Shown here in pieces: positions 10,007 through 30,932 of a stretch of DNA of 32,000 bases. The stretch is from contig NC_006512.1 in the NCBI RefSeq assembly GCF_000008465.1, positions 2,310,001 to 2,342,000 on the forward strand, read 5' to 3'. The translations under genes and the position numbers were made by a program. The notes below the pieces were generated by a model that saw only the letters and a program-made list of their open reading frames with translations, ran no database searches and had not been told where the DNA came from. The DNA comes from Idiomarina loihiensis L2TR. Its GTDB lineage: Bacteria > Pseudomonadota > Gammaproteobacteria > Enterobacterales > Alteromonadaceae. Each line of letters opens with the position of its first letter. Positions within the stretch are counted from its first letter, which is position 1.

Positions 10007-11274
10007 TGGAACTGGATTACCCGCAGTGGTTTCATGATTGGGCGGCAACCCAACCCTGGGCCTACACAATTGGAGCCTGCTTTTTCCTTGTTATAGCGGT
10101 TTGGTTGTCTCAGCTTGTGACCAAACACGTTTTACTGCGTGGTATTTCCCGTCTGCTGTCTCAAACCCAGTTAGGCAGTGACCCGGGTATAGGCATTCGC
10201 GTTATTGTCAGCCGCCTGGCTCAGGTTGTTCCTGCGTTAGTGCTGTCCGGCGGTATTTATCTGGTACCGGATTTACCGGAAACCGCCACCACCATCATAC
10301 GCAACATCAGTATTGCGTACCTCATCCTGACTCTGGCGCGTTCGTTTAGCGCGGCCATGACTAGCGTTAACGAAATATACAGTCGGCAGCCTGACGCGCA
10401 TACAAAGCCAATAAAGGGTTATCTGCAAATTGCGAAGATAGTGGTCTATGTGGTGGCGACTATTCTCATTATTGCCTCATTGCTGGACCGCTCTCCGGTT
10501 ATTCTGCTATCAGGAATTGGTGCCATGGGTGCGGTTGCCATGCTGGTATTTCAGGACACCATTCTGTCACTGGTTGCCAGTATTCAGCTCTCATCTAATG
10601 ACATGCTTCGTGTCGGCGACTGGATTGAAATGCCCCAGTTAAACGCTGACGGCGATGTCATTGATGTGGCACTGCATACGGTTAGGGTTCAAAACTGGGA
10701 TAAAACCATTACGAACATTCCCACCAAACGTCTTATTTCCGAGTCGTTTAAAAACTGGCGGGGCATGCAGGAAAGCGGTGGACGCCGTATAAAACGAGCG
10801 TTATACATTGACCAGAACAGTATTCACTTTTTGTCCGCTGAGCAGAAGAAAAAGCTGAAACGTTTCTCGCTACTTAGCGATTATCTGGAACAAAAAGAAA
10901 AAGATATATCTGAATGGAACGCGGGTCTGGAAAAGAAAGGCTTCGACCCTATAAACGGACGTCAGGTAACCAATATTGGTACCTTTCGCGCCTACGTGAA
11001 ACAGTACCTCAAGCAGCGACCCGACATACACGAAGGAATGACACTGATGGTTCGTCAGTTAAACCCGGGGCCTCAGGGTTTGCCCATTGAAGTGTACTGC
11101 TTTAGTAACGATACCGCGTGGGAAATCTACGAAGGTATTCAGTCCGACATTTTTGATCACTTGTTTGCCATACTGCCACAATTTGACTTACAGGTTTTTC
11201 AGGAAACCTCAGGGCAGGACGTTCGTTCAGCAGTACAAGCGCTGGAGCTTAAACCCAAAAGTGATGATGAATAA
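10003..11274 (+). CDS. Mechanosensitive ion channel family protein (MscS-like)
   Basis: N-terminal TM helices are followed by the MscS pore and beta-domain signature (FQDTILSLVASIQLSSNDMLRVGDWIEMPQLNADGDVIDVALHTVRVQNWDKTITNIPTKRLISESFKNW). Confidence 0.9.
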   Translation: MMELDYPQWFHDWAATQPWAYTIGACFFLVIAVWLSQLVTKHVLLRGISRLLSQTQLGSDPGIGIRVIVSRLAQVVPALVLSGGIYLVPDLPETATTIIRNISIAYLILTLARSFSAAMTSVNEIYSRQPDAHTKPIKGYLQIAKIVVYVVATILIIASLLDRSPVILLSGIGAMGAVAMLVFQDTILSLVASIQLSSNDMLRVGDWIEMPQLNADGDVIDVALHTVRVQNWDKTITNIPTKRLISESFKNWRGMQESGGRRIKRALYIDQNSIHFLSAEQKKKLKRFSLLSDYLEQKEKDISEWNAGLEKKGFDPINGRQVTNIGTFRAYVKQYLKQRPDIHEGMTLMVRQLNPGPQGLPIEVYCFSNDTAWEIYEGIQSDIFDHLFAILPQFDLQVFQETSGQDVRSAVQALELKPKSDDE

Positions 11275-11297
11275 GTTAAGACTGAACTAACACTTTA

Positions 11298-11315
11298 CTG
11301 TCATTAAGTCTTCAT
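11298..11315 (+). promoter_or_regulatory. Pho-box-like PhoB site upstream of phoD
   Basis: CTGTCAT-TAAG-TCTTCAT has a first half-site matching CTGTCAT perfectly, an 11-bp register and an AT-rich spacer. It lies 10 nt upstream of a -10-like TAATTT (11326-11331), the classical Pho-box position replacing the -35. Confidence 0.5.
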
Positions 11316-11365
11316 GTTTACGGAGTAATTTCTTTTACTCTGGGAAAAATGCATGGAGTAAAACA

Positions 11366-13060
11366 GTGAAGCAATTTAACCGACGTGACTTTTTAAAGCT
11401 ATTTGCAGCAACGGGCGCAGCAGTCACCGTATCAACCGCATTACAGGGCTGTGCAAGTGTTGGCAAAACCAGTGAGCGCAGCTCCGTCAAGTTTGACCAT
11501 GGCGTAGCCAGTGGCGATCCAACTTCAAACGCCATTTTGTTGTGGACGCGCGCCGTGCCGGAAAATACCGCAGAAAAACAAGTAACGCTGGGCTGGGAAC
11601 TGGCCGCCGATGAAAACTTTTCAAGTATCATTCGTTCTGGAACAGCCACAACAAGCGCCAGCAGAGACTACACAGTTAAAGTCGACGTTACTCAATTATC
11701 GCCAAACCAGCGTTACTACTATCGTTTTTTAGGTAAGAACAGCAAAAGCCCCTCTGGCAAAACGCAAACGCTTCCTGAATCTGGCTTAAAACCGCTGAAG
11801 TTTGCGGTTTTCTCCTGCTCTAACTACCCCGCCGGTTACTTTAACCCATACTCCGAAGCAGCAAAGGACGATTCTATTGATGCGGTCATTCATTTAGGTG
11901 ACTACATTTACGAGTATGGCGCAGGCGGTTACGCCACCCAAGGTTCGCAAGAAATTGGCCGCGGCTTACCCGACAACAATAATACAGAACTTTTTACCCT
12001 GACTGATTATCGTCGCCGCTACGCGCTTTACCGCACCGACGAAGGGTTACAGGCACTGCACGCACATGCCCCTTTTATTGCCGTGTGGGATGACCATGAA
12101 ATTAGCAATGACACCTGGAAAAACGGTGCAGAAAACCACCAGGAAGATGAAGGCAGCTTTATTGAAAGACGCGCAGCCGCGGTTCAGGCGTACTATGAGT
12201 GGCTGCCTATTCGTCCGCCACAGGGCGAAGCCAACCTCACTATTTATCGTGATTTCAAATTCGGTGACTTAGTTGATTTGATCATACTGGATACCCGCGT
12301 TATCGGACGTGATAAACAGCTGAATTATGACGACTACCGCGATGCAGAAAGCGGTCAGTTCAATACCCAAAAATTCCAGCAGGACATGTCTTCTGACCGC
12401 AGCATCATGGGCAAAAAGCAGTTACAGTGGCTGGTTAATAAACTGAATAACAGCTCAGCGCGCTGGCAAGTTTTAGGTCAACAATTGCTTATGGGGAAAA
12501 TGAACTTTCCTGCGGCCGCATTCGCGGCAGATGACCGCAGTAAAGTCACACCACTGCTGTTACAAATAGCAGAGCTTAAAAAGCGCCTGCAGAACGGCGA
12601 AGAGCTAACAGCACAGCAACAGGCAATGGTCACTCAGGTTACTCCCTATAACCTTGATGCATGGGACGGTTACCCCATTGAACGTGAAATGCTCTACCGG
12701 GCGGCGCAAAAAGCCAATAAACAACTGGTGGTTATTGCCGGTGACACTCATAACGCGTGGCACAGCGAACTGCGCAGTTCAGACGGAGCTCACATTGGGG
12801 TGGAGTTTGCCACGTCTTCGGTATCATCTCCGGGAATGGAAACTTACCTAAGTCTGGACACAAAAACTGCAGAACAGCTGGCAAAAGCACTTCCTACGCT
12901 TATAGAAGACTTAAAATATACCAACCTGCATCAGCGCGGTTATATGAACCTCTTTGCATCCGAGGACGCGGTAGAAGCGGAATGGGTATTCGTGGACACG
13001 ATTCGCAGCAAAGACTATCGGGTAGTGAATAAGCACAGAGCGCGCTATACGGGAAGTTAG
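11366..13060 (+). CDS. phoD: Alkaline phosphatase D family protein with a Tat signal
   Basis: GTG start preceded by GGAG. The N-terminus has a twin-arginine motif (NRRDFLKLFAATGAAV) and the lipobox-like QGC. PhoD metallophosphatase motifs are present (HLGDYIYEY, VWDDHEISND, GDTHNAW). Confidence 0.9.
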   Translation: MKQFNRRDFLKLFAATGAAVTVSTALQGCASVGKTSERSSVKFDHGVASGDPTSNAILLWTRAVPENTAEKQVTLGWELAADENFSSIIRSGTATTSASRDYTVKVDVTQLSPNQRYYYRFLGKNSKSPSGKTQTLPESGLKPLKFAVFSCSNYPAGYFNPYSEAAKDDSIDAVIHLGDYIYEYGAGGYATQGSQEIGRGLPDNNNTELFTLTDYRRRYALYRTDEGLQALHAHAPFIAVWDDHEISNDTWKNGAENHQEDEGSFIERRAAAVQAYYEWLPIRPPQGEANLTIYRDFKFGDLVDLIILDTRVIGRDKQLNYDDYRDAESGQFNTQKFQQDMSSDRSIMGKKQLQWLVNKLNNSSARWQVLGQQLLMGKMNFPAAAFAADDRSKVTPLLLQIAELKKRLQNGEELTAQQQAMVTQVTPYNLDAWDGYPIEREMLYRAAQKANKQLVVIAGDTHNAWHSELRSSDGAHIGVEFATSSVSSPGMETYLSLDTKTAEQLAKALPTLIEDLKYTNLHQRGYMNLFASEDAVEAEWVFVDTIRSKDYRVVNKHRARYTGS

Positions 13061-19439: not shown

Positions 19440-21623
19440 ATGGAAATCAATGTAAACTTTCTCGACAATATGCGCCTTGAGGCGAAATTCGATGACTTCA
19501 CAGTTATTTCGGATCAGCCTATTCGGTACAAAGGCGATGGTTCTGCCCCCGGTCCTTTTGACTACTTTCTGGCGTCTTCCGTTATGTGCGCGGCGCACTT
19601 TATTCGTTTGTATTGCGACGCCCGCGATATTCCAACCGAGAATATCCGCGTCTCGCAAAATAACGTGGTCGACCCGGAAGACCGCTATAAGCAGCTGTTT
19701 AAAATTCAGGTTGAGTTACCGGCCGATATTTCCGAGAAAGACCGCAAAGCCATTATCCGGGCAGCCGAGCGTTGCGCCGTTAAGCGCGTTATCGAAAACG
19801 ATTTAGAGTTTGACGTCGAAGCGGTTGAAAGCATCACTCAAGACGCTCAGGCGTTACTGACCATACGCCCTGACAGCGACAGCCGAACCTATATTGAAGG
19901 TAAAGACTTACCGCTGGAACAAACCATAGCCAATATGACGGCGATACTGGCGGACTTAGGCATGAAGATAGAAATATCCTCCTGGCGTAATATTGTTCCG
20001 CATGTGTGGTCGCTGCACATTCGCGATGCCGCTTCTCCTATGTGCTTTACCAATGGCAAAGGCGCCACCAAAGAAAGCGCATTATGCTCCGCGCTGGGTG
20101 AGTTTATTGAACGCTTAAGCTGTAATTTCTTCTATAACGACCAGTACTTTGGTGAAGAAATAGCAAACGCTGAGTTTGTGCACTACCCCAACGAAAAGTG
20201 GTTTAAGCCCGGCACAAACGACGAGCTTCCCACGGAAATTCTGGACGAATACTGCCGTGAGCTTTATGACCCTGAAGGTGAATTGCGCGGTTCACACTTA
20301 ATTGATACCAACTCAGGCCGGGCTGACAGAGGGATCGTTTCATTGCCGTTCACGCGTCATTCCGACGGCGAAACAGTTTATTTTCCGTCAAACTTAATTG
20401 AAAACCTGTATTTAAGTAACGGTATGAGCGCAGGTAATACCTTGCCCGAAGCTCAGGTTCAATGCTTATCGGAAATTTTTGAGCGCGCCGTTAAAAAGCA
20501 CATTATTGAAGAAGAAATTGCTCTGCCCGATGTGCCGCAAGAGGTGCTTAACAAGTACCCGAATATTCTGGAAGGAATAAAAGCCTTAGAAGAGCAAGGC
20601 TACCCAGTGTTAGTTAAAGATGCTTCGCTTGGCGGTCAGTTCCCGGTAGCTTGTGTTACTTTAATGAACCCACGCACCGGCGGTGTTTTTGCTTCTTTTG
20701 GTGCGCACCCAAGCTTTGAAGTGGCGCTGGAACGTAGCCTGACGGAGTTATTGCAAGGGCGCAGCTTTGAAGGTTTAAACGACCTGCCAGCCCCAACTTT
20801 CAACTCCATGGCCGTAACCGAGCCAAATAACTTTGTTGAGCACTTTATTGATTCGTCGGGTGTGGTGTCCTGGCGTTTCTTTAGCGCTAAGTCCGACATT
20901 GAATTCGTTGAGTGGGACTTCAGCGGCTCTAACCAGGAAGAAGCCGATACGCTGTTTGGTATTTTGCAGGACATGGGCAAAGAAGCTTACATAGCCGTGC
21001 ACGAAGATTTAGGCGCGCCAGTATGCCGTATTCTGGTACCAGGCTATTCTGAAGTTTACCCCGTGGAAGACCTTATTTGGGACAACACCAATATTGCTCT
21101 GCAATACCGTGAAGACATTCTCAACCTGCACCGCTTAACCGACGATCAGTTAGAAGACTTAGTTGAGCGCCTGGAAGACAGTCAGCTTGATAACTACATG
21201 GATATTATCACCCTGATTGGTATTGAGTTCGACGAAAACACGGTTTGGGGTCAGCTCACCATTCTTGAGTTAAAACTGCTTATCTACCTTGCGCTGCAAC
21301 GCCATGACGACGCTTTCGAATATGTAGAAATGTTCCTGCAGTTCAACGACAACACCGTTGAGCGCACGCTATTCTACCGTGCCATTGAAGCCGTACTGGA
21401 AATTACTCTGGACGAAGAGCTAGAGCTGGATGACTACCGCTACAACTTAGGCCGCATGTATGGCGAAGAGACCATAGAAGCCGTTATAGGCTCTGTTAAT
21501 GGTACTACACGCTTCTACGGTCTAACGCCAACCAATATGCAACTGGAAGGTCTGGACAGACACTTACGCTTAATAGAGAGCTACAAGAAACTGCACGCGG
21601 CACGGGCTGAACGGCAGGTTTAA
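19440..21623 (+). CDS. ycaO: OsmC-domain / YcaO-domain fusion protein
   Basis: The first ~130 aa are OsmC-like (GSAPGPFDYFLASSVMCAAHFIRLY...AERCAVKRV). A full-length YcaO-like region follows (TNGKGATKESALCSALGEFIERLS, NGMSAGNTLPEAQVQCLSEIFER, SFGAHPSFEVALERSLTELLQG) with a helical C-terminal domain. Confidence 0.85.
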   Translation: MEINVNFLDNMRLEAKFDDFTVISDQPIRYKGDGSAPGPFDYFLASSVMCAAHFIRLYCDARDIPTENIRVSQNNVVDPEDRYKQLFKIQVELPADISEKDRKAIIRAAERCAVKRVIENDLEFDVEAVESITQDAQALLTIRPDSDSRTYIEGKDLPLEQTIANMTAILADLGMKIEISSWRNIVPHVWSLHIRDAASPMCFTNGKGATKESALCSALGEFIERLSCNFFYNDQYFGEEIANAEFVHYPNEKWFKPGTNDELPTEILDEYCRELYDPEGELRGSHLIDTNSGRADRGIVSLPFTRHSDGETVYFPSNLIENLYLSNGMSAGNTLPEAQVQCLSEIFERAVKKHIIEEEIALPDVPQEVLNKYPNILEGIKALEEQGYPVLVKDASLGGQFPVACVTLMNPRTGGVFASFGAHPSFEVALERSLTELLQGRSFEGLNDLPAPTFNSMAVTEPNNFVEHFIDSSGVVSWRFFSAKSDIEFVEWDFSGSNQEEADTLFGILQDMGKEAYIAVHEDLGAPVCRILVPGYSEVYPVEDLIWDNTNIALQYREDILNLHRLTDDQLEDLVERLEDSQLDNYMDIITLIGIEFDENTVWGQLTILELKLLIYLALQRHDDAFEYVEMFLQFNDNTVERTLFYRAIEAVLEITLDEELELDDYRYNLGRMYGEETIEAVIGSVNGTTRFYGLTPTNMQLEGLDRHLRLIESYKKLHAARAERQV

Positions 21624-21625
21624 AA

Positions 21626-22576
21626 CTAAAAGTTCAGCCCGACAAAGGCTCCGCGGTTACGTTTAGCAACAGCCTGCATGAAGGCAGCAAAGGTTTCCGC
21701 GTTGCCTTGCGCGCGGCTAAAGCCTATTCCATGAATACGCATTACCGGCTTGCCATCGGCTCCCTGGTTCTGACTGGTTATCTGCCGAACTATGGCGTCT
21801 AAGTCACTGGCCCGGTAGTCGTCACCAAAAACGTACAAGCTGGTTGTGCCTTTGGTTTTTTTATAAAGGTTAATGGCTTTCAGAATACCCAGCTCAGGCG
21901 CACTTTTACCGCCGGTAAAGTTTGGCATTTGTTGCATGGCCATTTGTCTGAACCGTTTGCTGTCCGGTAACCAGTCACCCGCTTTACTGCTGAACATAAA
22001 GTCACCGTCGGCGGCCATAATCTGAAAGCCCTTCATTTTCGGGTGACTTTCTATAATGTCGTTAACAACGCTAATAACCCGGCTCCAGCCGCGGCCTCCC
22101 GACATAGACCCGGAATTATCAATAACAAACACCACGTACTCAGCGTCAGTTGGGATACCGCCTACATCATCATCAGGTGTGTCTGTGCTGTTCGGCGTGT
22201 TTAGCATTGCAGTGGCTTGCCGTATTTCAGCCCTTAACGACGAGGCTTTATCCTGCAATTGTTGCAGGGTTTTCTGTGCCCGCGGAATAGAGCTTTCTAG
22301 ATTCTTTTCCTGCTCAGTGACTGATGCGGTCTTTTGCTCGGCGGCCTTAAGCTCATCCTGTTTGTCGGACAAAGCCCCTTTTAATTCCTCAACCGACTGC
22401 TGCGCCTGCAATACTTCTGCAACTAAGGTACTGAGGTTAGCTGGCCCACGCTCGGTATCTTCAGTACCGTTTTTCGCTAACAACACCAGCATAATCACCG
22501 CACCAAAAGCACAGGAAATAATATCCAGAAAGGCCAGGTTGAAAACCTCTACTGGCGCACGCTGAATTTTTTTCAT
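21626..22576 (-). CDS. TolR/ExbD-like TM, coiled coil and vWA (MIDAS) protein, paralog 2
   Basis: The N-terminal TM (VFNLAFLDIISCAFGAVIMLVLL) carries an Asp placed as in ExbD/TolR. About 75 aa of heptad-rich helix follow, then a vWA fold with DNSGS (nt 22106-22120) and VFGDD. I prefer the ATG at 22576, which overlaps the upstream TAA by 1 nt with GGAG 8 nt upstream. The track start is the GTG at 22585. Confidence 0.8.
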   Translation of the reverse strand: MKKIQRAPVEVFNLAFLDIISCAFGAVIMLVLLAKNGTEDTERGPANLSTLVAEVLQAQQSVEELKGALSDKQDELKAAEQKTASVTEQEKNLESSIPRAQKTLQQLQDKASSLRAEIRQATAMLNTPNSTDTPDDDVGGIPTDAEYVVFVIDNSGSMSGGRGWSRVISVVNDIIESHPKMKGFQIMAADGDFMFSSKAGDWLPDSKRFRQMAMQQMPNFTGGKSAPELGILKAINLYKKTKGTTSLYVFGDDYRASDLDAIVRQITSQNQGADGKPVMRIHGIGFSRAQGNAETFAAFMQAVAKRNRGAFVGLNF

Positions 22577-23634
22577 TATGGCCACTCCGGAGCTGGCGAT
22601 AAGAATGTGCCGCCGCTTACCCGCGACCAGTTCCAGTAAAGCGGAGAAGCGTAGGGGTCACCTTCTATAGGCAGCAGTATAATATTGTAACGAACACCTT
22701 TAGGAGCGCGCTTGATGGTCTCAACCATCAATGCCTGACGGCAGTCTGAGGAGATAGATTTTTTCGTCGAAATAAAATTACGACAGGAAAGCGGCAGGCC
22801 GTCTCCCAATGTTGGCAGGCCATCCGTTACAATGTAGACATCGGTAATATTCGGATTCGTCTCAAATAACGTGCTAATGCCCAGCTGAAGGTTGGTTCCG
22901 CCCTCTGGCACAACCGCGCCTAAGTCTTTCACTATAGAATTCATAGAGCCGCTGACTGAGGCAGTGCTAACGTTCCGTTGCCCTAAACGGTTTGCCGTAT
23001 TGGAAAACGTCACCACACTCACTTTTGAGGTTTGCGGCAGTCTTGCCAGTAACCACTGAGCAACCCGCCGTGTTCTTATCCACTTAGCGGTAGACACTTT
23101 TTTGCCATCGCTCAAAGCCAGTTTGCTCAGCACGTCAATTAAGTTATCGCCCATCATAGAGGCGCTTTTATCGACCAGAATGCCTATTTGTTCGCCTTCC
23201 ACTTTCATGCCGGTGATAAAGTTCTGCTCACCCGTACCCGAAAGCTCAACGTTGGCTGACTTCTCAACTTCTTTGGACAAGGCCGCTAACTGGTTTTCCA
23301 AATCGGCAACTACGGCCAGCTGAGTCGACAAGTCCTGCAAAGCTTTGGTTTGATCCTGGGTGGTGTCGTTTTTCGCTTCTTTAGAGTCTTCCTGCTTAGC
23401 CGACTCCAGCGCAATTTTGTCATTAATTTCGTCAATGGACTTTTTCAGACGCTGCTGCTCGTCCATTGATGCCGCCAGCTCCTGCTCAAGCTTTTCTTTC
23501 TCTTCTGAAGGGTCGGGCGTAAAAGCTTTAAAATCTATCAGGATAAAAATAAGGATAACGGCGCCCAGCCCGCATGCCATGACATCCAGAAAAGATAAGT
23601 TAAAGCCGTCGCCAGCCTGGCGTGGTCGTCGCAT
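22576..23634 (-). CDS. TolR/ExbD-like TM, coiled coil and vWA (MIDAS) protein, paralog 1
   Basis: The N-terminal TM (GFNLSFLDVMACGLGAVILIFILI) has Asp17 at nt 23584-23586. A coiled coil of about 85 aa follows. The vWA domain has a complete MIDAS: DKSAS (nt 23158-23172), GGT, and TDG. Confidence 0.8.
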   Translation of the reverse strand: MRRPRQAGDGFNLSFLDVMACGLGAVILIFILIDFKAFTPDPSEEKEKLEQELAASMDEQQRLKKSIDEINDKIALESAKQEDSKEAKNDTTQDQTKALQDLSTQLAVVADLENQLAALSKEVEKSANVELSGTGEQNFITGMKVEGEQIGILVDKSASMMGDNLIDVLSKLALSDGKKVSTAKWIRTRRVAQWLLARLPQTSKVSVVTFSNTANRLGQRNVSTASVSGSMNSIVKDLGAVVPEGGTNLQLGISTLFETNPNITDVYIVTDGLPTLGDGLPLSCRNFISTKKSISSDCRQALMVETIKRAPKGVRYNIILLPIEGDPYASPLYWNWSRVSGGTFLSPAPEWP

Positions 23635-23647
23635 CTGAGTCGCTCAA

Positions 23648-24418
23648 TTAACTGTGTAAATGAGACAGCAAGTGCTTCTCGCAGGACTCTTGCGTGCGGA
23701 TAACCATCTTGTCCTGACGGCTGTTCAGCAAGTGCATAAACAACATCAGAATCAAAGAAATAAACAGCGCCACCAGCGTTGAGTTAAAAGCCACACCCAG
23801 CGATGCAGTCATACCGGCAATGTCACCATCCAGTGCCTTGTCGGCCTGCGCCAGCGCCGAGCCAATACCGCGCACCGTACCCACGAAGCCAATAGACGGA
23901 ATAGCCCAGATAATGTAGCGGATCATGTTGTTGCCGCTTTCTAACTGAATGGCAATATTGTCTACCGACGACTCGATGGTGTCAGCTGCGTGCTGAACGT
24001 TTTTGGTGTTCTTAAAACGACGAATACAGTTAATCCAGGTGCTGTATGCGGGGGTTTCTTTATAAGCCGAGCTTTCTAAGTCATTTAATGCGGCATCAAC
24101 GTCCAGCGCTTCGGACTTGTCGTAGCTTTCCAGTAAGTCGCGCGAATAAATTTCTTCTTCGTCAATTAACCGCCACAACTTATACAACATAAGGAACAGA
24201 CAGAACAACATGAGCGAAATACACACCTGCTGTTCAACATCTTTGAAGATAACCGAAAATGCAGTTAAAGCTTCTGTCCCTTTCTCTGCCATTGCCACTT
24301 CGGCCGCCGGGCGAATAAGTCCCGCATACAGCAAATGTATCAGGGTAAAAATAGCCAGTAGCACACCACCACTGACAAAAAAGTTAGGGCTCATTGAAAG
24401 CGTATTATTTTTAGACAT
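23648..24418 (-). CDS. MotA/TolQ/ExbB proton-channel family protein
   Basis: The 256-aa ORF has three hydrophobic helices and the family core (IRYIIWAIPSIGFVGTVRGIGSALA...MTASLGVAFNSTLVALFISLILMLFMHLL). Confidence 0.9.
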   Translation of the reverse strand: MSKNNTLSMSPNFFVSGGVLLAIFTLIHLLYAGLIRPAAEVAMAEKGTEALTAFSVIFKDVEQQVCISLMLFCLFLMLYKLWRLIDEEEIYSRDLLESYDKSEALDVDAALNDLESSAYKETPAYSTWINCIRRFKNTKNVQHAADTIESSVDNIAIQLESGNNMIRYIIWAIPSIGFVGTVRGIGSALAQADKALDGDIAGMTASLGVAFNSTLVALFISLILMLFMHLLNSRQDKMVIRTQESCEKHLLSHLHS

Positions 24419-24433
24419 TATGCATTCCGGGCG

Positions 24434-24541
24434 TTAAATGTTGGTGGGGAAGTCTTGTGGTGCATCCAAAGACACAAAATAAGCCGTCGCGCTGCCGGCC
24501 AGAGCCAGCAGTATGACGCCCAAAATCACGCGTTTTTTCAT
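24434..24541 (-). CDS. Small (35-aa) membrane or signal-peptide-like protein, not in the supplied ORF track
   Basis: My translation is MKKRVILGVILLALAGSATAYFVSLDAPQDFPTNI followed by TAA. A strong SD (GAGGAG, 24549-24554) lies 7 nt upstream of the ATG. The ORF fills the gap between the FGE-domain gene (14 nt upstream) and the MotA-like gene (15 nt downstream). Confidence 0.55.
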   Translation of the reverse strand: MKKRVILGVILLALAGSATAYFVSLDAPQDFPTNI

Positions 24542-24555
24542 GATGTTTCTCCTCA

Positions 24556-26538
24556 TCACTCATGATACCGGGCTATTCTAAAGCCGATATCCTCTGCCGA
24601 AGTGCTTTCGCCGTCGCGAACGCTGGCACGAATATTCTTCATGCGTCCGGTTTTATAAGACGCACCTTTTACCACATTCCCATTACCACGAGCCGCACCC
24701 TGGTAATCGGTGTAAACCCGGTCAAGGTCAGGCGGGTTTAAAGTGTAACTGTCGTGTACCCACTCTTTGACGTTGCCGTCTAAATCAAAAAAGCCGCCAC
24801 GCTCTGCTTTAAAACTGCCTACCGGTGCTTTACCGGCAAAACCGTCATTGTAACCACGTAAAATGAAAGTCTGCTGACCTTTTGCAGACTCATCGGCAAA
24901 GTTGCCCTGCTTGTCACGCAGGTGTTCCTGGCTGCCCCACACGTAAATAGTGGAGTCGGCTCTGCGATTAATTTTGGCAATGTATTCCCACTCGGCTTCA
25001 GTCGGCAAGCGGTAACCACGCGAGCTAGCATCGGTTCCCACCACTTTACCGTTACTGACTTTATAAAAAGGCTGCAAGCCTTCCTGTTCGCTCAGCCAGT
25101 TGGTAAATAACGCAGCTTCGTCCCAGGACACATTCGTAACCGGCATTTTGGTTTTACTACCCGAGCCTTTAAACGCGGCAAACTGCGCCTCGGTAATTTC
25201 ATGGCGCGATATCCATACGTCCCGTGAGAAATCCACTTTCACCTGATGCTCATTACGTCCGCGGTTTGGCTCATTAACCGGCGAGCCCATAGTGAATTTT
25301 TTCGGCGACAGACGGTTCATTTCAATGCCTAAAGTACTGACAAACAACGGTCTGCCTTCTTTTCTTCTGGCATCAAACTCGCGCAGCATCTCGGCTTTTA
25401 CGTTCACCAGCCGCTCGCTGCTAGGCTGAAACTCCTGCTTAACCGTACGGTAACCGGTTTTACGAAACTCAACGTTAGAAGGCAAAGCTTGCAAAGTGGT
25501 GCGAAGCGGCGTTACGCCCTGCTTTTGTCCGTTAATGTAAACGTCGCTGGGTTCGTTGGAGGTAAAAGCTACGTCACCCATTTCCGGGTCTAAGTTAAAG
25601 GTCAGCTGCTGATTCTCGGCTGGACCCAGCTTAATTGTCCGGCTTTGCTTAATGTAGCCGGCCTTTTCGTAACGAATAACATGTTCTTTATTGGCATCAA
25701 CGCTAACTAGATTTTTTGCCGGCGCGCCGTTAACCAGCAACGCTCCGCCCTTCGGGTTCACCGAAACATTAACGGTTGCCTGCACTGGCTGTAGTCGATA
25801 ATTACGCTTAGGTTCTTTATTGCGCACGGTTAAAGACACGGTGTCCGTTACCGGTTCATACCCCGGATAATTCACCACCACAGGGTAGTCGCCACCCACT
25901 TTAGCAACGGTTACCGGCGTTGAACCCACCTCTTTGCCGTCAAGGGTAACCGACGCGCCAGCCGGGCTGGAGTTAATAGAGATAGTGCCACTAATAGGGG
26001 TTAGCCGAAGTTGATATTCAACTTTACCGTCTATTAACGCCTCAATTGCCACTGAAGCAGGCTCGTAAGCCGGATGCGAGGCCGACACCGTATACGTTCC
26101 GGGAGCAAATTCATCCTCAAAGGTAGAAGCGGTTTCTCGCTGCTCACCGTTAACTGACCAGACAATATCATTTGCGCCCGGCTCTGTTGTTATCGTCACT
26201 TTTGCCGGTTTAGGCTCCAGCTCAACTTCAATAGTTGAAGGGCTGTTGTCGTTTACCTGCACTTCTTTGGTTTGGTACTTGTCGGCCGAAACCGCCACGA
26301 GGCCACCAGAGCCTACCGCGTAATATTTATTGTCGATGAAAAAGCCAATACCGGAATTAACCGCAAAGCGCTGAGTTTGCGCAGCTTCTGTTGGCTTTAC
26401 GGTAAAACTGTAGCCTTTGGTTAGAAACAACCAGCCAAAGTAAATAACCAGCAGTGCAAGAATACTGACCGAGAAGCCAATAGCCATTAGCCGTCGTTTA
26501 CGTCGTCCTTTCTCAATGGCTTCGTCAAGTGTGGCCAC
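24556..26538 (-). CDS. N-terminally anchored protein with PEGA repeats and a C-terminal FGE-sulfatase (SUMF1-like) domain
   Basis: GTG start with an AGGAGAG SD 5 nt upstream. The TM is LMAIGFSVSILALLVIYFGWLFL. Several PEGA-type modules are present (for example SSPAGASVTLDGKEVGSTPVTV and SDVYINGQKQGVTPL). FGE-sulfatase motifs are present (KFTMGS, VSWDEAALFTNWLS, YRLPTEAEWEY, GNVKEWVHDSY, VVKGASY, IGFRIAR). The translated protein contains no cysteine. Confidence 0.85.
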   Translation of the reverse strand: MATLDEAIEKGRRKRRLMAIGFSVSILALLVIYFGWLFLTKGYSFTVKPTEAAQTQRFAVNSGIGFFIDNKYYAVGSGGLVAVSADKYQTKEVQVNDNSPSTIEVELEPKPAKVTITTEPGANDIVWSVNGEQRETASTFEDEFAPGTYTVSASHPAYEPASVAIEALIDGKVEYQLRLTPISGTISINSSPAGASVTLDGKEVGSTPVTVAKVGGDYPVVVNYPGYEPVTDTVSLTVRNKEPKRNYRLQPVQATVNVSVNPKGGALLVNGAPAKNLVSVDANKEHVIRYEKAGYIKQSRTIKLGPAENQQLTFNLDPEMGDVAFTSNEPSDVYINGQKQGVTPLRTTLQALPSNVEFRKTGYRTVKQEFQPSSERLVNVKAEMLREFDARRKEGRPLFVSTLGIEMNRLSPKKFTMGSPVNEPNRGRNEHQVKVDFSRDVWISRHEITEAQFAAFKGSGSKTKMPVTNVSWDEAALFTNWLSEQEGLQPFYKVSNGKVVGTDASSRGYRLPTEAEWEYIAKINRRADSTIYVWGSQEHLRDKQGNFADESAKGQQTFILRGYNDGFAGKAPVGSFKAERGGFFDLDGNVKEWVHDSYTLNPPDLDRVYTDYQGAARGNGNVVKGASYKTGRMKNIRASVRDGESTSAEDIGFRIARYHE

Positions 26539-26580
26539 GAAGTCTCTCCTGTTTTTTTAATTATTCTACGCTAAATTATG

Positions 26581-28014
26581 CTAAACGCGTTCGTTACACT
26601 GAACGTTAATAACAATTGGCGTGCCCGACTTCTCCACCACAACATCGACAATGATTGAGCGGTAGCCATCGCGGCGGCCTTCTAATTGGTATTTACCCGG
26701 CTTTAACTGGATGGTTTTCTCTCTTACCTCACCCACAACACCAACGCCCAGTACTTTTATATAAGTGCGGTTGTCGGAGCGAATGGTCACATCTATGGGC
26801 TGATTTTCCTTTTCAATAAGCTGCTCAACCTGGTTTATTTTTTCACCCAGCTTTGCGCTCAATTGCGTGAGCCCACTGTATTTGGACACCGCATTCACGG
26901 CATTTTGGCGAATGTTGTTGTCAGCAAGCCGGCCCGGTCTTTCAATATAAACATCCAGCGCACTGCTGGCGGCTAATATTTCTTCCGCGCTTTGTTTAGC
27001 CTGCTGCACAACCCGGCTGTCCGGATAATCGACCAAACCCTTTTCTGCCAGCATCTGTACCGTCTGCCATTCGTCGGCACCGGCAAAGACCTGAATGCGT
27101 TTTTCTAACGACTTCACACCCTGACTTTTTAACTCAGCGTCAATTTGCGCCTGCAGGGTTGCCAGTTCCGGCCGGTTGTTGTCTATAGCCGAAGCTTTGG
27201 TTAATGCCTCCTGGGCGCGATCAAAGTCTTTTTTATCAATGGCATTCACCGCCGTTGCCAAAGCACCGGCAAAACGTTGTTGTTTAATTTGCTGTTCCAC
27301 TTTCGCTAAGGCTGCCTTGGCATCCTGCTGTTGCGGATCAAGCTTTAGAATTTGTTGATAAGCAGCACGCTGCTTCTCTATATTGCCTTCTACACCGCCT
27401 ACTCTGGCCTGTTCATACAAATCAGCGACTTCATGGTAGGTATCTATACGTTTCTGAAACGCCAGCGCGTCGCTAAAATCGCCTTTTACCTTTAACGCCT
27501 GAGCATTCAACTGAGCGGCATCATCAATGTCGTCGGCAGCAAAGGCTTTTGCTGCGTCCGCATAAGGTTGTCTATAAGCCTTTTCAAACGCGCTTTGGTA
27601 CTCTGTAATATCTGTGTTGAGTTGCTCAATAGTGGTTTGCGCCTGGCTGTAATTACTGGCGCCATAGTCATTAAAAGCCTGATCTATGTCGGTCTGAAAA
27701 GCCTCAACTTTGGCGGGCTGCCACGTCGATATATACGGGGTAGCAACAAGCTCAGAAACGCGGTGATTGGTCTCATTTAAGGCCGTTTGCAGCGCTTTTC
27801 TGTCTATTGCCTGGTTAGCGGAACTTATCTGCGGCTCGCTTTTCTCTTGTTTTTCCGCGACTACCGGCGTGTTACCCGAAACCGGAAAATAAGCGAGCAA
27901 AGTAACGACAACGCCAATCAGCAAACAGGCAAAAACAGAGGCAATTACACCGGTTATTATGACTTTTTTCTTTTTAGCACGGTTTTCTGCTATTTGCTGA
28001 TCAACAGACGACAT
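26581..28014 (-). CDS. N-terminally anchored periplasmic helical (TPR/TolA-like) protein with a C-terminal PEGA-like beta domain
   Basis: The 477-aa ORF has a Lys-rich N-terminus and one TM (VIITGVIASVFACLLIGVVVTLLAYF). About 330 aa of Ala/Gln/Asp-rich helical repeats follow. The C-terminal ~70 aa (VTIRSDNRTYIKVLGVGVVGE...LKPGKYQLEGRRDGYRSIIVDVVV) resemble a PEGA module. Confidence 0.7.
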   Translation of the reverse strand: MSSVDQQIAENRAKKKKVIITGVIASVFACLLIGVVVTLLAYFPVSGNTPVVAEKQEKSEPQISSANQAIDRKALQTALNETNHRVSELVATPYISTWQPAKVEAFQTDIDQAFNDYGASNYSQAQTTIEQLNTDITEYQSAFEKAYRQPYADAAKAFAADDIDDAAQLNAQALKVKGDFSDALAFQKRIDTYHEVADLYEQARVGGVEGNIEKQRAAYQQILKLDPQQQDAKAALAKVEQQIKQQRFAGALATAVNAIDKKDFDRAQEALTKASAIDNNRPELATLQAQIDAELKSQGVKSLEKRIQVFAGADEWQTVQMLAEKGLVDYPDSRVVQQAKQSAEEILAASSALDVYIERPGRLADNNIRQNAVNAVSKYSGLTQLSAKLGEKINQVEQLIEKENQPIDVTIRSDNRTYIKVLGVGVVGEVREKTIQLKPGKYQLEGRRDGYRSIIVDVVVEKSGTPIVINVQCNERV

Positions 28015-28035
28015 CGTTACCTTTCCTTAGGTGAA

Positions 28036-29319
28036 TTAAAGCTGAGTTAACGGCGTTGATTCGAGATCATAAATCTCTTTCAGCTTTTCACGTAATTGCG
28101 CGTATTGCTCACCAGCGGTACCGGTTAATTCAATGTTCTGGTCATTAAGTTCTACCACCTGCGGAGTTACTTTTATGTCCAGGTTTTGTCCCATTTCATC
28201 AAGCAGCGCACGTTGAGTGCCTAATTCACGGTTGGTTTTTATTGCTTCGCTTAAGCTGTAAACCGCACCTAAACCTGCCGCCGCACTAGCCACCTGGCCA
28301 GCGGTAGAGCCTGAATTTTTACCCAGCAAAATAGCGGCCGTAGCTAAAATACCAGCACCAACCTGCGCGCGGGTTCTCTCTGCTTTCTTCTGTCGAATAT
28401 CAATAGCAACCGGCAGAGTCTCTTCCTGATAAGTACGGTATGCATCATGGGTCGTTGCATAGAAGGTGTCGTAACTGTCCTGCAATGAGTCAACAAACTG
28501 CTGGTCTTTCGCTTTAATCACATTAACCCGCTGATACATAGGGTCTGATTCAGCCGGAGCGCCGTTCAGCGTAATAGTTGAACGGCTCGAAAAGATACTA
28601 CTGGACTCACCCAGATAACCACCAAAGGCTTCAGGACTGTACATTGCGGCATAGCGCATATCTGAAACCGCCTGAATGGTTTTCTTCTCTTCTTCAGATT
28701 TTTTAATTAGCAAGTCATAAACATAACCCGCAATGCTTTCAAAAATTGGACCGTATGGGTTTTCACCTTTTCTTAACGCGTCACGGTAAAAGCCTGCGCC
28801 TACCTGATACTCAAACTCTTCCTCGCCCCAAATTTGGTTACTGGCGTCCATAACACGAACACCAATTTCAACGGTTTCGGTGTCTGAGTAGTTAATTTTT
28901 CCCAGCACGTAAACATCGGCACTGACGTTAGCATCGGGAGTCACATTCACTGCACCAAAGGCTTTAGTATCAGAAAGTGCTTCGCGGGTATTTACCGCAA
29001 AACGGTTCGCCTCTAAACGACGCACCTGTGGCCAAATGTCTTCTTCAACTATGGCTTCATCATCAATATTGCCGGAACTGTCTTTCGGCAACCCCGGGTC
29101 AAACACCGGAATAGCCACATTAAGATAAACATTAGAGTTGTAACTGTAGCTACGCTCTTTTTTGCCCAAGGCTTTAGAGTCTGACGGACCATTCATGCTT
29201 GGGCCAACGCTGGTAACATTAGTTTGGGTTGACTGGCAGCCGGCTAATGTAAACATTGCAGAAAGCGTCATAACGACTGAAAATCGTTTTAGTTTTTTTA
29301 GTTGAGCTAGTGTATTCAT
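28036..29319 (-). CDS. Lipoprotein of unknown function with a C-proximal Gly/Ala-rich hydrophobic segment
   Basis: A signal peptide with lipobox LAGC (Cys28, Gln at +2) is present. The GGAAG SD is correctly placed. Near the C-terminus is the Gly/Ala-zipper-like stretch VGAGILATAAILLGKNSGSTAGQVASAAAGLGAV. I recognise no family motif. Confidence 0.7.
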   Translation of the reverse strand: MNTLAQLKKLKRFSVVMTLSAMFTLAGCQSTQTNVTSVGPSMNGPSDSKALGKKERSYSYNSNVYLNVAIPVFDPGLPKDSSGNIDDEAIVEEDIWPQVRRLEANRFAVNTREALSDTKAFGAVNVTPDANVSADVYVLGKINYSDTETVEIGVRVMDASNQIWGEEEFEYQVGAGFYRDALRKGENPYGPIFESIAGYVYDLLIKKSEEEKKTIQAVSDMRYAAMYSPEAFGGYLGESSSIFSSRSTITLNGAPAESDPMYQRVNVIKAKDQQFVDSLQDSYDTFYATTHDAYRTYQEETLPVAIDIRQKKAERTRAQVGAGILATAAILLGKNSGSTAGQVASAAAGLGAVYSLSEAIKTNRELGTQRALLDEMGQNLDIKVTPQVVELNDQNIELTGTAGEQYAQLREKLKEIYDLESTPLTQL

Positions 29320-29338
29320 GTTCTTCTTCCGTTAATTA

Positions 29339-29878
29339 TTAACATCCGTACTCGGCCATTAAGCCTTTAAAATGTTCCTTTTCAGCTTCGGTTGTTGCCG
29401 AAGCCATGCCTTCTTTCACTGCGTCGCATACGGCAGAACTGCCGCCACCGCTGTTGCCACGCTTATGATCTTTTGTATCCACCGAACTTTCCGATGCCGT
29501 AGATGTAGATTGCTGTTGTTGCTCACTGGAGTTTGCGCCGCTATTACCTGAACTACCAGCCGAACCCGAAGCTCCACCTGCAGCACCAGAACCGCTGCCG
29601 CTGGCAGCATCAGCAAGGCTGCCGGAAGCCGACACAGTGGCCTCTTCCATACACTCGGCAGAGTCATCTAAAGAGGCAAACAGCGCAGCCTCCTCAAGCG
29701 CAATGCGTTCTTGCAGAGTAAGCGTGCTGGGGTCGACGTCGTCGAACTCTATGTAGGCACAATCGGAATAGCTTTTCTCCTGAGCTTCAGCCACACCACT
29801 GCCCAAGCACAACACCGCCAGAAAACACACAGGCGCATAGGCAAAGAAGTTGATGAGTGATGAACTGATTTTATCCAC
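29339..29878 (-). CDS. Secreted Ser/Gly-rich low-complexity protein with conserved-looking cysteines; first gene of the operon
   Basis: GTG start. The signal peptide is FFAYAPVCFLAVLCLGSGVAEA. An acidic segment is followed by the SGSLADAASGSGSGAAGGASGSAGSSGNSGANSSEQQQQSTSTAS tract, and the protein ends in a terminal Cys (AEYGC). Start codon choice is uncertain. Confidence 0.55.
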   Translation of the reverse strand: MDKISSSLINFFAYAPVCFLAVLCLGSGVAEAQEKSYSDCAYIEFDDVDPSTLTLQERIALEEAALFASLDDSAECMEEATVSASGSLADAASGSGSGAAGGASGSAGSSGNSGANSSEQQQQSTSTASESSVDTKDHKRGNSGGGSSAVCDAVKEGMASATTEAEKEHFKGLMAEYGC

Positions 29879-29935
29879 GGTAGGAACCTATAAAATGACT
29901 TGAGGGCAGTACTCAGATAACGTTAAGTTAAGGTT

Positions 29936-29966
29936 ATTATATTCCTGAATGTAAATAAACTGTAAA
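29936..29966 (-). promoter_or_regulatory. Candidate sigma-70 promoter of the eight-gene operon
   Basis: On the minus strand there is a perfect -10 TATAAT (29936-29941) and a -35 TTTACA (29961-29966), separated by a long 19-nt spacer. This lies about 58 nt upstream of the GTG at 29878. The -35 belongs to a cluster of three TGTAAA repeats on the plus strand (starting at 29950, 29961 and 29967). Confidence 0.4.
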
Positions 29967-30005
29967 TGTAAAATTTCTGTGGGTAAGCTGGCTGATTGCT
30001 GCTAT

Positions 30006-30932
30006 TTACATCACACCATCATTACTTTTGAAACGCTGTAGCATAAAATCAATAAACAGCCTTACCCTGTATGGAATATTTTCTCTGTCCCGGTAGAGCA
30101 TTTCACACCCGCGAGCCTGGTTGCTCCAGGCCGGTAAAATGTGTTGAATTTTGCCTGACTCGAGCAGAGGTTGCGCGTGGTAGTCGGGAATAAAGCCAAC
30201 GCCTATGCCACCCGCTATCACTTCAGTCAGTAAACTCATGTCATCCACTTTTAAGCGTATGTTGTCGGTAGCCGTATAAGCCTGCTTTTCACCCGAGTGA
30301 ATATGCTGCAGACTCCAGGTCAGCATAGGCGAACACAGCACCGTGGGTAACCCGGCTAAGTCGGCGGGAGCCTTTATGTGGGATACATCCAAATTTGCCG
30401 GACCGCAAATAGCAAAACGAATATTGGTTAACTGTCGGCCAATCCAGTGAGTTGCGCTGTGATGACCAATGCGAAAAGCCAGGTCCATGGCTTCTTCATC
30501 AATGTCTATAGTTTGGTTGGATAGCTTTAAGTCGAGCTCAATGTCCGGATACTGCCTCATAAACGCATTAAAATGATGAACCAGTACCTGAACGCTGAAA
30601 TTAATTGGGGCAGAAATTCTTATCGTACCCTTGGCCTCGTTTCTGTCCTGCTGCAGGCATGCAGCCACATTGTCCAGCTCGTCGAAAATGGGCGCACTTC
30701 TGCGATAATACCGTTGCCCCGCAAAGGTTAGTTGCACACGGTGAGCGTCCCTATTAAAAAGCCGCAACGCTAAGTCTTGTTCCAGCTTGGCAATTCTGCG
30801 ACTGAGTGTGGAAAGCGGCATTTGTAAGGCAACCGCCGCTTGTTTAAAACTGCCATACTGCGCCACCATGCAGAAGCAGCGCATGTCATCCAGTGAGTAA
30901 TTAGGTTTCATATTTGGAATTTTAATTCCCAT
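30006..30932 (-). CDS. LysR-family transcriptional regulator
   Basis: The N-terminal wHTH is LDDMRCFCMVAQYGSFKQAAVALQMPLSTLSRRIAKLEQDL. A LysR substrate-binding fold of typical length follows. An alternative start at M8 (30911) is possible. Confidence 0.9.
   Translation of the reverse strand: MGIKIPNMKPNYSLDDMRCFCMVAQYGSFKQAAVALQMPLSTLSRRIAKLEQDLALRLFNRDAHRVQLTFAGQRYYRRSAPIFDELDNVAACLQQDRNEAKGTIRISAPINFSVQVLVHHFNAFMRQYPDIELDLKLSNQTIDIDEEAMDLAFRIGHHSATHWIGRQLTNIRFAICGPANLDVSHIKAPADLAGLPTVLCSPMLTWSLQHIHSGEKQAYTATDNIRLKVDDMSLLTEVIAGGIGVGFIPDYHAQPLLESGKIQHILPAWSNQARGCEMLYRDRENIPYRVRLFIDFMLQRFKSNDGVM

Follow-up and report, generated by a model that had tools for sequence, protein, structure and literature searches.

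The window analysed here is a stretch of 32,000 nucleotides (nt) from Idiomarina loihiensis L2TR (contig NC_006512.1, positions 2,310,001 to 2,342,000 of the forward strand), and all window coordinates below are counted from its first nucleotide. At 21626-29878 it contains eight closely packed genes on the minus strand, labelled g1 to g8 in the direction of reading, among them a gene for a channel protein of the MotA/ExbB/TolQ family (g6) and two genes for paralogs that carry the vWA domain (von Willebrand factor A type; g7 and g8). The spacers from g1 to g8 measured 19, 21, 42, 14, 15 and 13 nt, and g7 and g8 overlapped by 1 nt in an ATGA stop/start. The original prediction, made from the DNA letters and their open reading frames (ORFs), had taken these genes for an envelope operon encoding an ion-driven machine, and the positions, gaps and overlap that it reported matched the ORF table, the source of the gene coordinates given here. 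Hydropathy and inspection of the sequences revealed an export or anchor signal in all eight products, as had been predicted. Seven possessed hydrophobic segments, with a single N-terminal one in each of g1, g3, g4, g5, g7 and g8, and g2 had a lipobox.

The profile searches proposed with that prediction found MotA_ExbB in g6, VWA_2 in g7 and g8, and both PEGA and FGE-sulfatase in g4, all above their cut-offs. No family in the Pfam scan matched g1, g2 or g5, and no curated NCBIfam family or PADLOC defence system was assigned to any of the eight products. ExbD/TolR/MotB, peptidoglycan-binding, nuclease and ATPase domains were not detected by Pfam in the eight-gene block of the window. A consensus scan of the operon for internal promoter and terminator signals returned no more than shuffled expectation, which is compatible with a single transcript.

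The conservation of the block was surveyed in one genome per species, covering 185,579 species, by means of a profile built from 30 diverse relatives of g6. At least 598 of the 600 matching stretches listed encoded a g6 relative. ORFs were called in a set of 85 loci, including the best 80 of these at least 598 relatives, and searched with hidden Markov models (HMMs) iterated from the eight window proteins. Two copies of the g7/g8 family followed the MotA-like gene in all 85 loci, with g7 always located directly 3' of g6 or separated from it by one inserted gene. Homologs of g4, g3 and g2 were found in 80, 70 and 69 loci respectively, and a g1 homolog lay immediately 5' of g2 in 66. The hosts belonged to the Gamma-, Alpha-, Delta- and Zetaproteobacteria, Binatia and Opitutales, and among them were Alteromonadales, Cellvibrionales, Methylophaga, Nitrosomonadaceae, several alphaproteobacterial orders and Desulfobacterales. 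Conservation of gene neighbourhood, a check named in the original prediction, was evident from the order 1-2-3-4-(5)-6-7-8, which was complete in 61 of the 85 loci among unrelated flanks, contig ends explaining most of the shortfalls. Three Idiomarina genomes with independent gene calls had the same eight genes, including the one of 35 amino acids (aa), and differed in both flanks, and in Thalassomonas and Rheinheimera the block was kept in unrelated surroundings. The finding that the eight genes form one conserved module around a MotA/ExbB/TolQ-family channel is supported by these comparisons.

No match to the g6 family was found in 50,697 phage records, and a search of 72,556 plasmids gave one partial match, of 30% identity, on a 1.3-Mb Rhizobium replicon. 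The locus is chromosomal and vertically conserved. In one Rheinheimera locus (L005, 1-20771) a flagellar gene cluster surrounded the block: flgK/flagellin genes lay on one side and flagellin/fliD/fliS on the other, and motA/motB followed 6 kb downstream. This setting was seen in a single lineage and may be coincidental.

The g6 channel-family protein and its proposed vWA partners

The g6 product (24418-23648, 256 aa) is a member of the MotA_ExbB superfamily, matching Pfam PF01618 with 55.0 bits (E 8.9e-15) against a gathering cut-off of 22.9. Four hydrophobic segments were recognised in it, and its sequence is 100% identical to that of a MULTISPECIES protein of Idiomarina. Among protein clusters at 50% identity, 539 matched g6 with E<=1e-10 and 64 did so at E<=1e-30. 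The motifs WAIPSIGFxGTVRGIG and LGVAFNST were invariant in 30 diverse relatives, down to 29% identity, and so were T181 (GFVGTVRGIG) and T214 (AFNST) within them, in 30 out of 30 members. The two threonine motifs align with GTVWGI and ALIAT in the pore helices of TolQ. TolQ is the only solved relative detected by sequence (E 0.02), in an alignment that starts at the second hydrophobic segment of g6, and a profile of the g6 family had no match in PDB at E 0.01. The protein is not TolQ proper, as it scored 17.1 bits with the TolQ equivalog model (NCBIfam TIGR02796), for which the cut-off is 221. We presume that g6 is the pentameric A subunit of a motor.

The g7 (23634-22576, 352 aa) and g8 (22576-21626, 316 aa from the ATG at 22576, with an alternative GTG at 22585) products scored 30.6 and 31.0 bits with Pfam VWA_2, whose cut-off is 27, and g8 also matched VWA_3 and VWA. 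The two are paralogs, with 25% identity over the transmembrane (TM) helix and stalk (E 2e-10), and they share the TM motif ...(S/A)FLD(V/I)... In g7 a short basic N-terminus leads into a TM helix (FLDV, with Asp17), a coiled coil of about 100 residues, the vWA domain and a C-terminal ...WP. Likewise, g8 starts with a short basic tail and a TM helix (FLDI, with Asp18); after a coiled coil comes its vWA domain, in which a DxSxS...S...D set resembles a metal-ion-dependent adhesion site (MIDAS). Asp17 of g7 was present in 75 of 75 sequences with a called N-terminus; F16, L17 and D18 of g8 were found in 81 of 81, and the C-terminal W351 of g7 was equally constant (81/81). The MIDAS positions of g7 were D155 (78/81), S157 and S159 (both 81/81), T247 (75/81) and D271 (80/81), and those of g8 were D153, S155 and S157 (80/80 each), S225 (79/79) and D252 (79/79). 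Judging by these residues, the MIDAS set is intact in both vWA domains. The distance from the TM motif to the MIDAS was tightly constrained, with medians of 133 residues in g7 and 131 in g8. It was longer in g7 and g8 of the same lineages (Pearson 0.73; Spearman not significant), a co-variation that is only suggestive as a test of heterodimerisation.

Neither a His nor an SHLS motif was found in the TM helices of g7 and g8. Pfam detected no ExbD/TolR (PF02472), MotB plug or OmpA-like match in the whole of either protein, and g7 had no informative match in PDB. The PADLOC models of ZorB matched g7 weakly (E 8e-4 and 5e-3). The features expected of a B subunit are nonetheless there: a single TM helix with its N-terminus inside, an acidic residue near the cytoplasmic end of that helix, and a gene that adjoins the A gene in all 85 loci. 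Since no profile finds ExbD or TolR, the assignment of g7 and g8 as B subunits is founded on the motif, the linkage, the lack of any other candidate and a published model that is discussed below. Together these points support a paralog pair that stands in for ExbD/TolR. The original prediction of two TM/coiled-coil/vWA paralogs as ExbD/TolR-like partners of the channel gained from the invariant TM Asp, from the occurrence of the pair at every locus and from the want of any ExbD, TolR or MotB domain.

Exported proteins and lineage variants

The five genes upstream of g6 encode exported or membrane-anchored products. The g1 product (29878-29339, 179 aa) is an exported, acidic, Ser/Gly-rich protein with a signal peptide (ending GVAEA, before Q) and six Cys, in keeping with its original description as a secreted Ser/Gly-rich protein containing cysteine. 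Its family has a conserved N-terminal helix, an acidic linker of low complexity and a conserved C-terminal helix, and some members possess a lipobox. Homologs outside Alteromonadales shared the C-terminal segment G(K)(I/V)PEDIP(S/P)xDNDxxLxxQIRxAAxxExDPxxxxxLWNEYRKYKG, which was found in loci L029, L030, L034, L038, L042, L048, L063, L064, L067, L076, L079 and L081. The homologs with this segment sit about 3.7-5.2 kb into each locus and matched no Pfam family. The g1 product of the window itself lacks the (I/V)PEDIP segment.

The g2 product (29319-28036, 427 aa) has the lipobox LAGC, followed by Gln at +2, and its Cys28 was invariant in 29 homologs; it is probably an outer-membrane lipoprotein. 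An AlphaFold2 (AF2) model had a mean pLDDT of 65.7, rising to 70-93 in an alpha/beta core (about residues 60-300), and the C-terminal part was helical and Gly/Ala-rich. The best Foldseek matches of the core in PDB were weak throughout: LptE (E 3e-3), PqiC and the N-terminal domain of TolB (probability up to 0.98, E 0.016-0.1).

The g3 product (28014-26581, 477 aa), a bitopic inner-membrane protein, had been described as TolA-like. This was not upheld by its AF2 model (pLDDT 88.3), in which a disordered linker connects the TM helix to a tetratricopeptide repeat (TPR) superhelix (about residues 72-403), followed by a C-terminal beta-sandwich (about 407-470) of the PEGA/transthyretin/CarboxypepD_reg kind; there is no TolA-type helix, and the TM segment has neither SHLS nor His. 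Foldseek matches to the model were consensus TPR superhelices, P58IPK, OGT and the transthyretin-like domain of carboxypeptidases D, N and M. Pfam detected only TPR, below threshold, and the source annotations name homologs either 'tetratricopeptide repeat protein' or 'PEGA domain-containing protein'. The C-terminal sandwich is conserved and the TM segment is not. In two relatives of about 785 aa (P0466 and P0467) the TPR-sandwich region was fused, on its N-terminal side, to a Ser/Thr protein kinase domain. These fusions hint that the module can be wired to signalling.

Two Pfam families were matched by g4 (26538-24556, 660 aa), likewise a bitopic inner-membrane protein: FGE-sulfatase with 118.3 bits (E 5.9e-34) and PEGA with 107.6 bits (E 2.9e-31). 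A TM helix is followed by a chain of beta-sandwiches of the PEGA/CarboxypepD_reg type and a C-terminal FGE-sulfatase (C-type-lectin-like) domain. The protein has no Cys at all, so that the catalytic Cys pair is missing and it is not a catalytic FGE. Its anchor is the N-terminal TM helix, with no lipobox. Sequence matches in PDB were about equally good for FGE enzymes (about 5e-12) and for PorK/GldK (about 3e-11). With the GldK/PorK model (NCBIfam TIGR03525) g4 scored 72 bits against a cut-off of 350, and no GldL, GldM or GldN neighbours were found.

The smallest gene, g5 (24541-24434, 35 aa), encodes MKKRVILGVILLALAGSATA followed by YFVSLDAPQDFPTNI. The first part is a signal peptide or TM anchor, and possible cleavage at the junction would leave YFVSLDAPQDFPTNI as the mature peptide. 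A Shine-Dalgarno sequence, GAGGAG, is located 7 nt 5' of the ATG. The family ends in (S/D)LN/D-x-P-x-x-FP-x-(D/N)-I directly before the stop codon; the commonest tail is ...SLNSP(V/A)SFPVDI and that of the window is ...SLDAPQDFPTNI, with the end FPTNI. The first-pass HMM recovered g5 in 29 loci only, and the g4-g6 spacers then showed a small ORF almost everywhere. A scan for small ORFs just 5' of g6 ending in [FLAP][PL]x[DN]I before the stop detected a g5-type ORF in 78 of the 85 loci, and two more were recovered by HMM. It was missing solely from three Opitutales loci and from two loci cut at or near a contig end. Independent annotations of Idiomarina and Rheinheimera also call it as a gene. 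The conserved tail in 78 loci, the Shine-Dalgarno sequence and these annotations bear out the 35-aa gene of the original prediction. Many g5 peptides had an AxA-type cleavage site, for example AYA before Q, and because of these sites and the signal-like N-terminus the mature product may be a periplasmic peptide of 15-20 residues. The Cellvibrionales form of g5 is longer (80-115 residues); it has an acidic linker and keeps the same tail. A P-x-D-I core is common to the g5 tail (FPxDI-COOH) and to the PEDIP of most g1 proteins outside Alteromonadales. As the cores are alike, the two might be ligands of one receptor, for example a MIDAS, which is speculation from the motifs.

Some lineages departed from the eight-gene arrangement. 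Three Opitutales loci (L065, 9225-14424; L070; L085) had the MotA-like gene and two vWA genes and lacked all of g1-g5, which suggests that these five form one accessory module on a more widespread g6-g7-g8 core. In L065 a gene for a Gly-zipper (YMGG-like) protein lies just upstream of the trio in divergent orientation. In Cellvibrionales (Porticoccus, Halieaceae) and in an Opitutaceae genome, an extra gene for 410-490 aa was inserted between g6 and g7, at 10828-12135 (plus strand) in L079, at 10870-12330 in the Opitutaceae locus L065, and likewise in L061, L066, L068, L071, L072, L076, L078, L080, L082 and L084. The Cellvibrionales and Opitutaceae versions are homologous (E 8e-16), and the sequences inspected had no evident signal peptide. 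A profile of 12 members matched Hsp70/DnaK nucleotide-binding domains in 29 of its 31 PDB matches, collinearly and with a best E of 0.003. This is weak but consistent evidence that the inserted protein, whose gene is absent from the window, may be a cytoplasmic partner of actin/Hsp70 fold in those lineages. The original statement that no ATPase or other cytoplasmic effector is encoded is correct for the window and does not extend to the Cellvibrionales and Opitutaceae relatives with this divergent Hsp70-like insert. Cellvibrionales also had a same-strand extension, with a TPR gene 5' of g1 (2426-3712 in L079) and, 3' of g8, two genes of about 235 aa without known identity and a gene for an M48 peptidase of BepA-like size (14165-17013 in L079); the positions are the same in L068-L084.

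Interpretation and alternatives

The core of this system has been predicted before. In 'Origin and Evolution of Bacterial Periplasmic Force Transducers' (Mol Biol Evol 2025, msaf138; PMC12204202), an in silico study of June 2025, a TolQ-like gene was described together with a 'TPH-vWA' pair. Its section 8 and Fig. 4c-d present vWA transpore-helix proteins that usually occur as heterologous pairs and lack the SHLS motif; the helix was proposed to be TolR-like, and an AlphaFold3 (AF3) model of 5:2 stoichiometry placed the Asp pair inside the Thr ring. The cluster survey was seeded on Idiomarina, printed as 'Idiomarina iohensis' and presumably I. loihiensis, and the function of the TPH-vWA/TolQ-like system was stated as unknown. 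The text of that paper treats three core genes only and mentions neither g1-g5 nor PEGA, sulfatase or GldK. The window has a tolQ-like gene and two TM-vWA genes with the TM Asp, and it has no tolR or exbD and no SHLS motif; its core trio is the same system. What differs from the published description is that g1-g5 are co-conserved with the trio in fixed order in Proteobacteria and Binatia, and absent in Opitutales. The original prediction of an undescribed machine was accordingly too broad for the core trio, which is known as a prediction; the conserved five-gene accessory module, with its g5 peptide, and the variant architectures are new here. Full-text searches turned up this one relevant paper and nothing of use on combinations of FGE-sulfatase, PEGA and ExbB or on triplets of the product names, and a survey of MotAB proteins (mBio 2025) did not cover vWA-type B subunits. 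The published work reached the same core model, a TolQ-like pentamer with two transpore-helix vWA proteins, and it provides independent support for ours.

We consider it probable that the block encodes an ion-driven motor of the 5:2 type with vWA B subunits and an accessory module directed to the periplasm and outer membrane. In such a motor g6 would form the channel ring, and a g7-g8 heterodimer would replace TolR, ExbD or MotB, each partner putting its Asp-bearing helix into the ring. Each B helix would run on into a coiled-coil stalk of about 100 residues with a vWA head and its MIDAS at the tip. Flow of ions, perhaps protons, past D17 of g7 and D18 of g8 would drive relative rotation between the ring and the B dimer. 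The stalk would bring torque or tension into the periplasm, and the vWA heads, deep in that compartment, would hold an acidic protein ligand through the MIDAS. Candidates for what is held, pulled or turned are g1-g4: g4 as an inner-membrane-anchored chain of sandwiches whose tip would have the non-catalytic, lectin-like FGE-sulfatase fold seen in GldK/PorK, g3 as an inner-membrane-anchored TPR superhelix with a sandwich, g2 as a lipoprotein probably at the outer membrane, and g1 as an acidic, disordered periplasmic protein with paired Cys, a lipoprotein in some lineages. To these g5 would add a short exported peptide with a conserved C-terminus. As in Ton and Tol, mechanical work would be the output, delivered to the periplasm or the outer membrane, and not a cytoplasmic signal. 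The 5:2 stoichiometry and the rotation are suggested by knowledge of the family and by the AF3 model of PMC12204202. Heterodimerisation of g7 and g8, the physical association of g1-g5 with the motor, the outer-membrane location of g2 and the biological role are likewise steps that we infer.

Several observations weigh against this interpretation. All solved A subunits are very distant from the g6 family (TolQ, E 0.02), isolated TM segments of g7 and g8 had no Pfam match even at E 10, ExbD, TolR and MotB included, and the correlation of stalk lengths comes from a few lineages. The fold match of g2 is weak. Genomic evidence alone connects g1-g5 to the motor, and as the three Opitutales loci have the trio without them, the motor does not require the accessory module. 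Conservation does not extend to the TM helices of g3, g4 and g5, so there is no sign of TonB/TolA-style docking on the ring; since their periplasmic ends are conserved, contact with the motor would be expected in the periplasm. Furthermore, the Hsp70-like insert without an evident signal peptide indicates that the family may also have a cytoplasmic face.

A bolder version of the proposal, which we offer only tentatively and as a whole, is a third general machine for trans-envelope force besides Ton and Tol, built from eight proteins and shared by many Proteobacteria. The heterodimeric B subunits would themselves be the transducers, with MIDAS heads that capture the ...FPxDI tail of g5, the '(I/V)PEDIP' of g1 or both. 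Rotation would wind or pull an assembly of the GldK-like/PEGA protein, the TPR protein and the lipoprotein, and add-ons specific to some lineages (the Hsp70-like cytoplasmic protein, the M48 protease) would adapt the engine to other outputs.

Ion-driven 5:2 motors (Mot, Ton, Tol, GldLM, Zorya) energise the ATP-free periplasm and outer membrane of diderm bacteria, and each new output of such motors has opened a field. The present system is widespread, and it seems to belong to the standard genes of Alteromonas, Idiomarina, Pseudoalteromonas and Rheinheimera as well as of numerous marine Alpha- and Gammaproteobacteria. If the vWA proteins are B subunits, they depart from the rule by which the force transducer (TonB, TolA) is a protein of its own. 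Beyond the 2025 report, our analysis gives an eight-gene parts list, a tiny peptide with a conserved tail, residues to mutate and natural 'minimal' (Opitutales) and 'extended' (Cellvibrionales) versions. All of these taken together make the role directly testable in culturable, genetically tractable marine bacteria.

The original claim that the block matches no known 5:2 system stood for Tol-Pal, GldKLMN/PorKLMN and Zorya, and for Agl-Glt as far as the parts list goes, and failed for the core trio of PMC12204202. The same paper (Fig. 4a-b) describes SHLS-type vWA force transducers in bacteria of the Planctomycetes-Verrucomicrobia-Chlamydiae (PVC) group, encoded with TolQ, two TolR and a TPR protein. 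A periplasmic vWA head on a TolQ-like motor and a TPR protein in the cluster are common to both. In the PVC system, however, the vWA protein is TolA/TonB-like, its SHLS helix docks outside the ring and canonical TolR is present, whereas here the vWA proteins would be the B subunits themselves. There is a likeness to MotAB/PomAB in the four hydrophobic segments of g6, the second and third of which are separated by a large loop as they are in MotA, and in the single essential-type Asp near the cytoplasmic end of the B helix. Unlike MotB, g7 and g8 lack the plug and the OmpA-like peptidoglycan-binding domain, and the block lies outside the flagellar regulon except at the apparently incidental Rheinheimera site.

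As a special case of the proposed machine, the motor could act in envelope maintenance like Tol-Pal, pulling an outer-membrane lipoprotein complex (g2 with g1, g3 and g4) that tethers or remodels the outer membrane or the peptidoglycan, for example in division or under stress. We regard this role as rather unlikely, although much in the block recalls Tol. Both systems have a MotA/ExbB/TolQ-family A subunit, TolQ being the closest solved one, and inner-membrane-anchored proteins that span the periplasm. TolR has the TM motif ...PLLDV..., and the Asp-bearing B helix here reads ...SFLDV... The lipoprotein signal of g2 has a residue other than Asp at +2, and its core weakly resembles LptE and the N-terminal domain of TolB. 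TPR proteins such as CpoB accompany Tol, and g3 is modelled as an inner-membrane-anchored TPR protein that could span the periplasm. Chromosomal location and retention across whole genera would also suit a maintenance role. The differences are that no TolB beta-propeller, OmpA-like Pal or TolA SHLS helix is encoded in g1-g8, that in g7 and g8 a coiled coil plus vWA domain takes the place of the TolR periplasmic domain, and that g6 has an extra N-terminal hydrophobic segment and a TolQ NCBIfam score of 17 against the cut-off of 221. The match of the g2 fold is in the range of E 3e-3 to 0.1. For an ion-driven motor we nevertheless lean towards Tol-like maintenance over gliding, adhesion or secretion.

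In GldLM/PorLM, an ion-driven motor of the 5:2 type, the bitopic subunit is a dimer that extends across the periplasm. By analogy with GldLM-GldKN or with Agl-Glt, the rotating B dimer could drive the GldK-like FGE-fold protein and the lipoprotein, moving or exporting a surface adhesin or polymer. Such a role in motility, adhesion or secretion appears quite improbable to us. The pairing of a 5:2-type motor with an adjoining, non-catalytic protein of FGE-sulfatase fold, as similar to PorK/GldK as to FGE enzymes, would suit it. GldK and PorK have been reported to lack the FGE catalytic Cys, as g4 does, and GldM and PorM are long periplasmic dimers, which g7 and g8 may resemble. The block lies inside a flagellar cluster in one Rheinheimera, and vWA adhesins act with the Agl-Glt motor (PMC9946355). 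Yet the vWA heads here are tethered to the inner membrane and not exposed at the surface, and Pfam found no ExbD-family domains of the AglQ/AglS type. The FGE, PEGA and TM-vWA content differs from the published Glt parts list. GldL/PorL, unlike g6, is not a PF01618 protein, and g4 is far below the GldK cut-off (72 bits against 350), with PEGA repeats and a TM anchor where GldK/PorK is a lipoprotein. At the 85 loci, neither the block nor its neighbours included GldM/N, a translocon of the SprA type, an outer-membrane barrel or a cargo gene. The block lacks GldM/N, SprA and the cargo of the type IX secretion system, and its hosts are Proteobacteria.

It is also conceivable, though very unlikely, that there is no motor at all. 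In that case g6 would act as a passive membrane scaffold or channel, with g7 and g8 as static envelope organisers of the vWA/TPR type, like BatA-E, and the TM Asp would serve assembly only. TM-anchored vWA proteins with TPR partners do exist without motors in the Bat aerotolerance operon, which offers an analogy, and no ExbD profile matches g7 or g8. A membrane Asp with a channel Thr is, however, the signature of ion-coupled 5:2 motors (MotAB, ExbBD, TolQR), and the TM Asp of both paralogs and the channel Thr of g6 are invariant over deep divergence. The A-B-B gene linkage, strict in 85 of 85 loci, argues in the same direction.

Phage sensing had been left open in the original prediction. A Zorya-type sensor, in which the MotAB-like unit would detect an envelope breach or phage attack and trigger a response, resembles the block as a non-flagellar MotAB-like pair with weak PADLOC matches (ZorA, E 1.5e-4, about 19 bits; ZorB, E 8e-4, about 17 bits), and the flanks in some genomes carry integrase/NYN or toxin-like genes (SymE, Fic). 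The window has no ZorC/D-like effector, ZorE, nuclease, ATPase or peptidoglycan-binding domain, and g6, with 256 aa, lacks the long ZorA tail. The same eight genes recur in the same order in distant orders, and in Alteromonadales their identity falls with taxonomic distance, a distribution unlike that of a patchy defence island; nor is the block mobile. With no PADLOC system, no phage match and a single partial plasmid match of 30% identity, the defence reading was rejected as highly improbable.

Flanking sequences and minor features

The putative promoter region of the operon comprises the 127 nt 5' of g1 (29879-30005, minus strand). It contains three TTTACA hexamers and one TATAAT at non-canonical spacing, and the consensus promoter scan reported no site in it. 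No riboswitch or other RNA element was detected by an Rfam scan of 21000-30500. Upstream of this region are a LysR gene (30006-30932) and then an EamA gene, both unrelated to the block, and the LysR neighbour was not kept beside it in the other genomes compared (Idiomarina, Thalassomonas, Rheinheimera). In one of the Idiomarina loci (L001, 596-4413) an NYN-domain gene and a phage-type integrase were found beyond LysR/EamA on the g1 side. The LysR ORF of that locus has 145 aa, with the substrate-binding domain only, while that of the window has 308 aa. The integrase and NYN genes and the shortened LysR indicate that the g1 side of the block is a variable region. A ninth conserved neighbour was considered and rejected as a functional link: when the flanking ORFs were clustered all against all, the biggest group ('GGDEF-like', 18 loci) was a single-linkage mix of signalling proteins, and its members adjoin the block in Idiomarina only.

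The convergent downstream neighbour (19440-21623, plus strand), also unrelated to the block, encodes a 727-aa fusion of an OsmC-like domain and a YcaO cyclodehydratase domain. This gene ends 2 nt from the g8 stop codon, and separate terminators therefore have no room. An antisense ORF with an ATG start (22056-22565, plus strand, 169 aa) lies within g8. Its product would be Cys/Ser-rich and of low complexity, and it is most likely a shadow ORF and not a gene.

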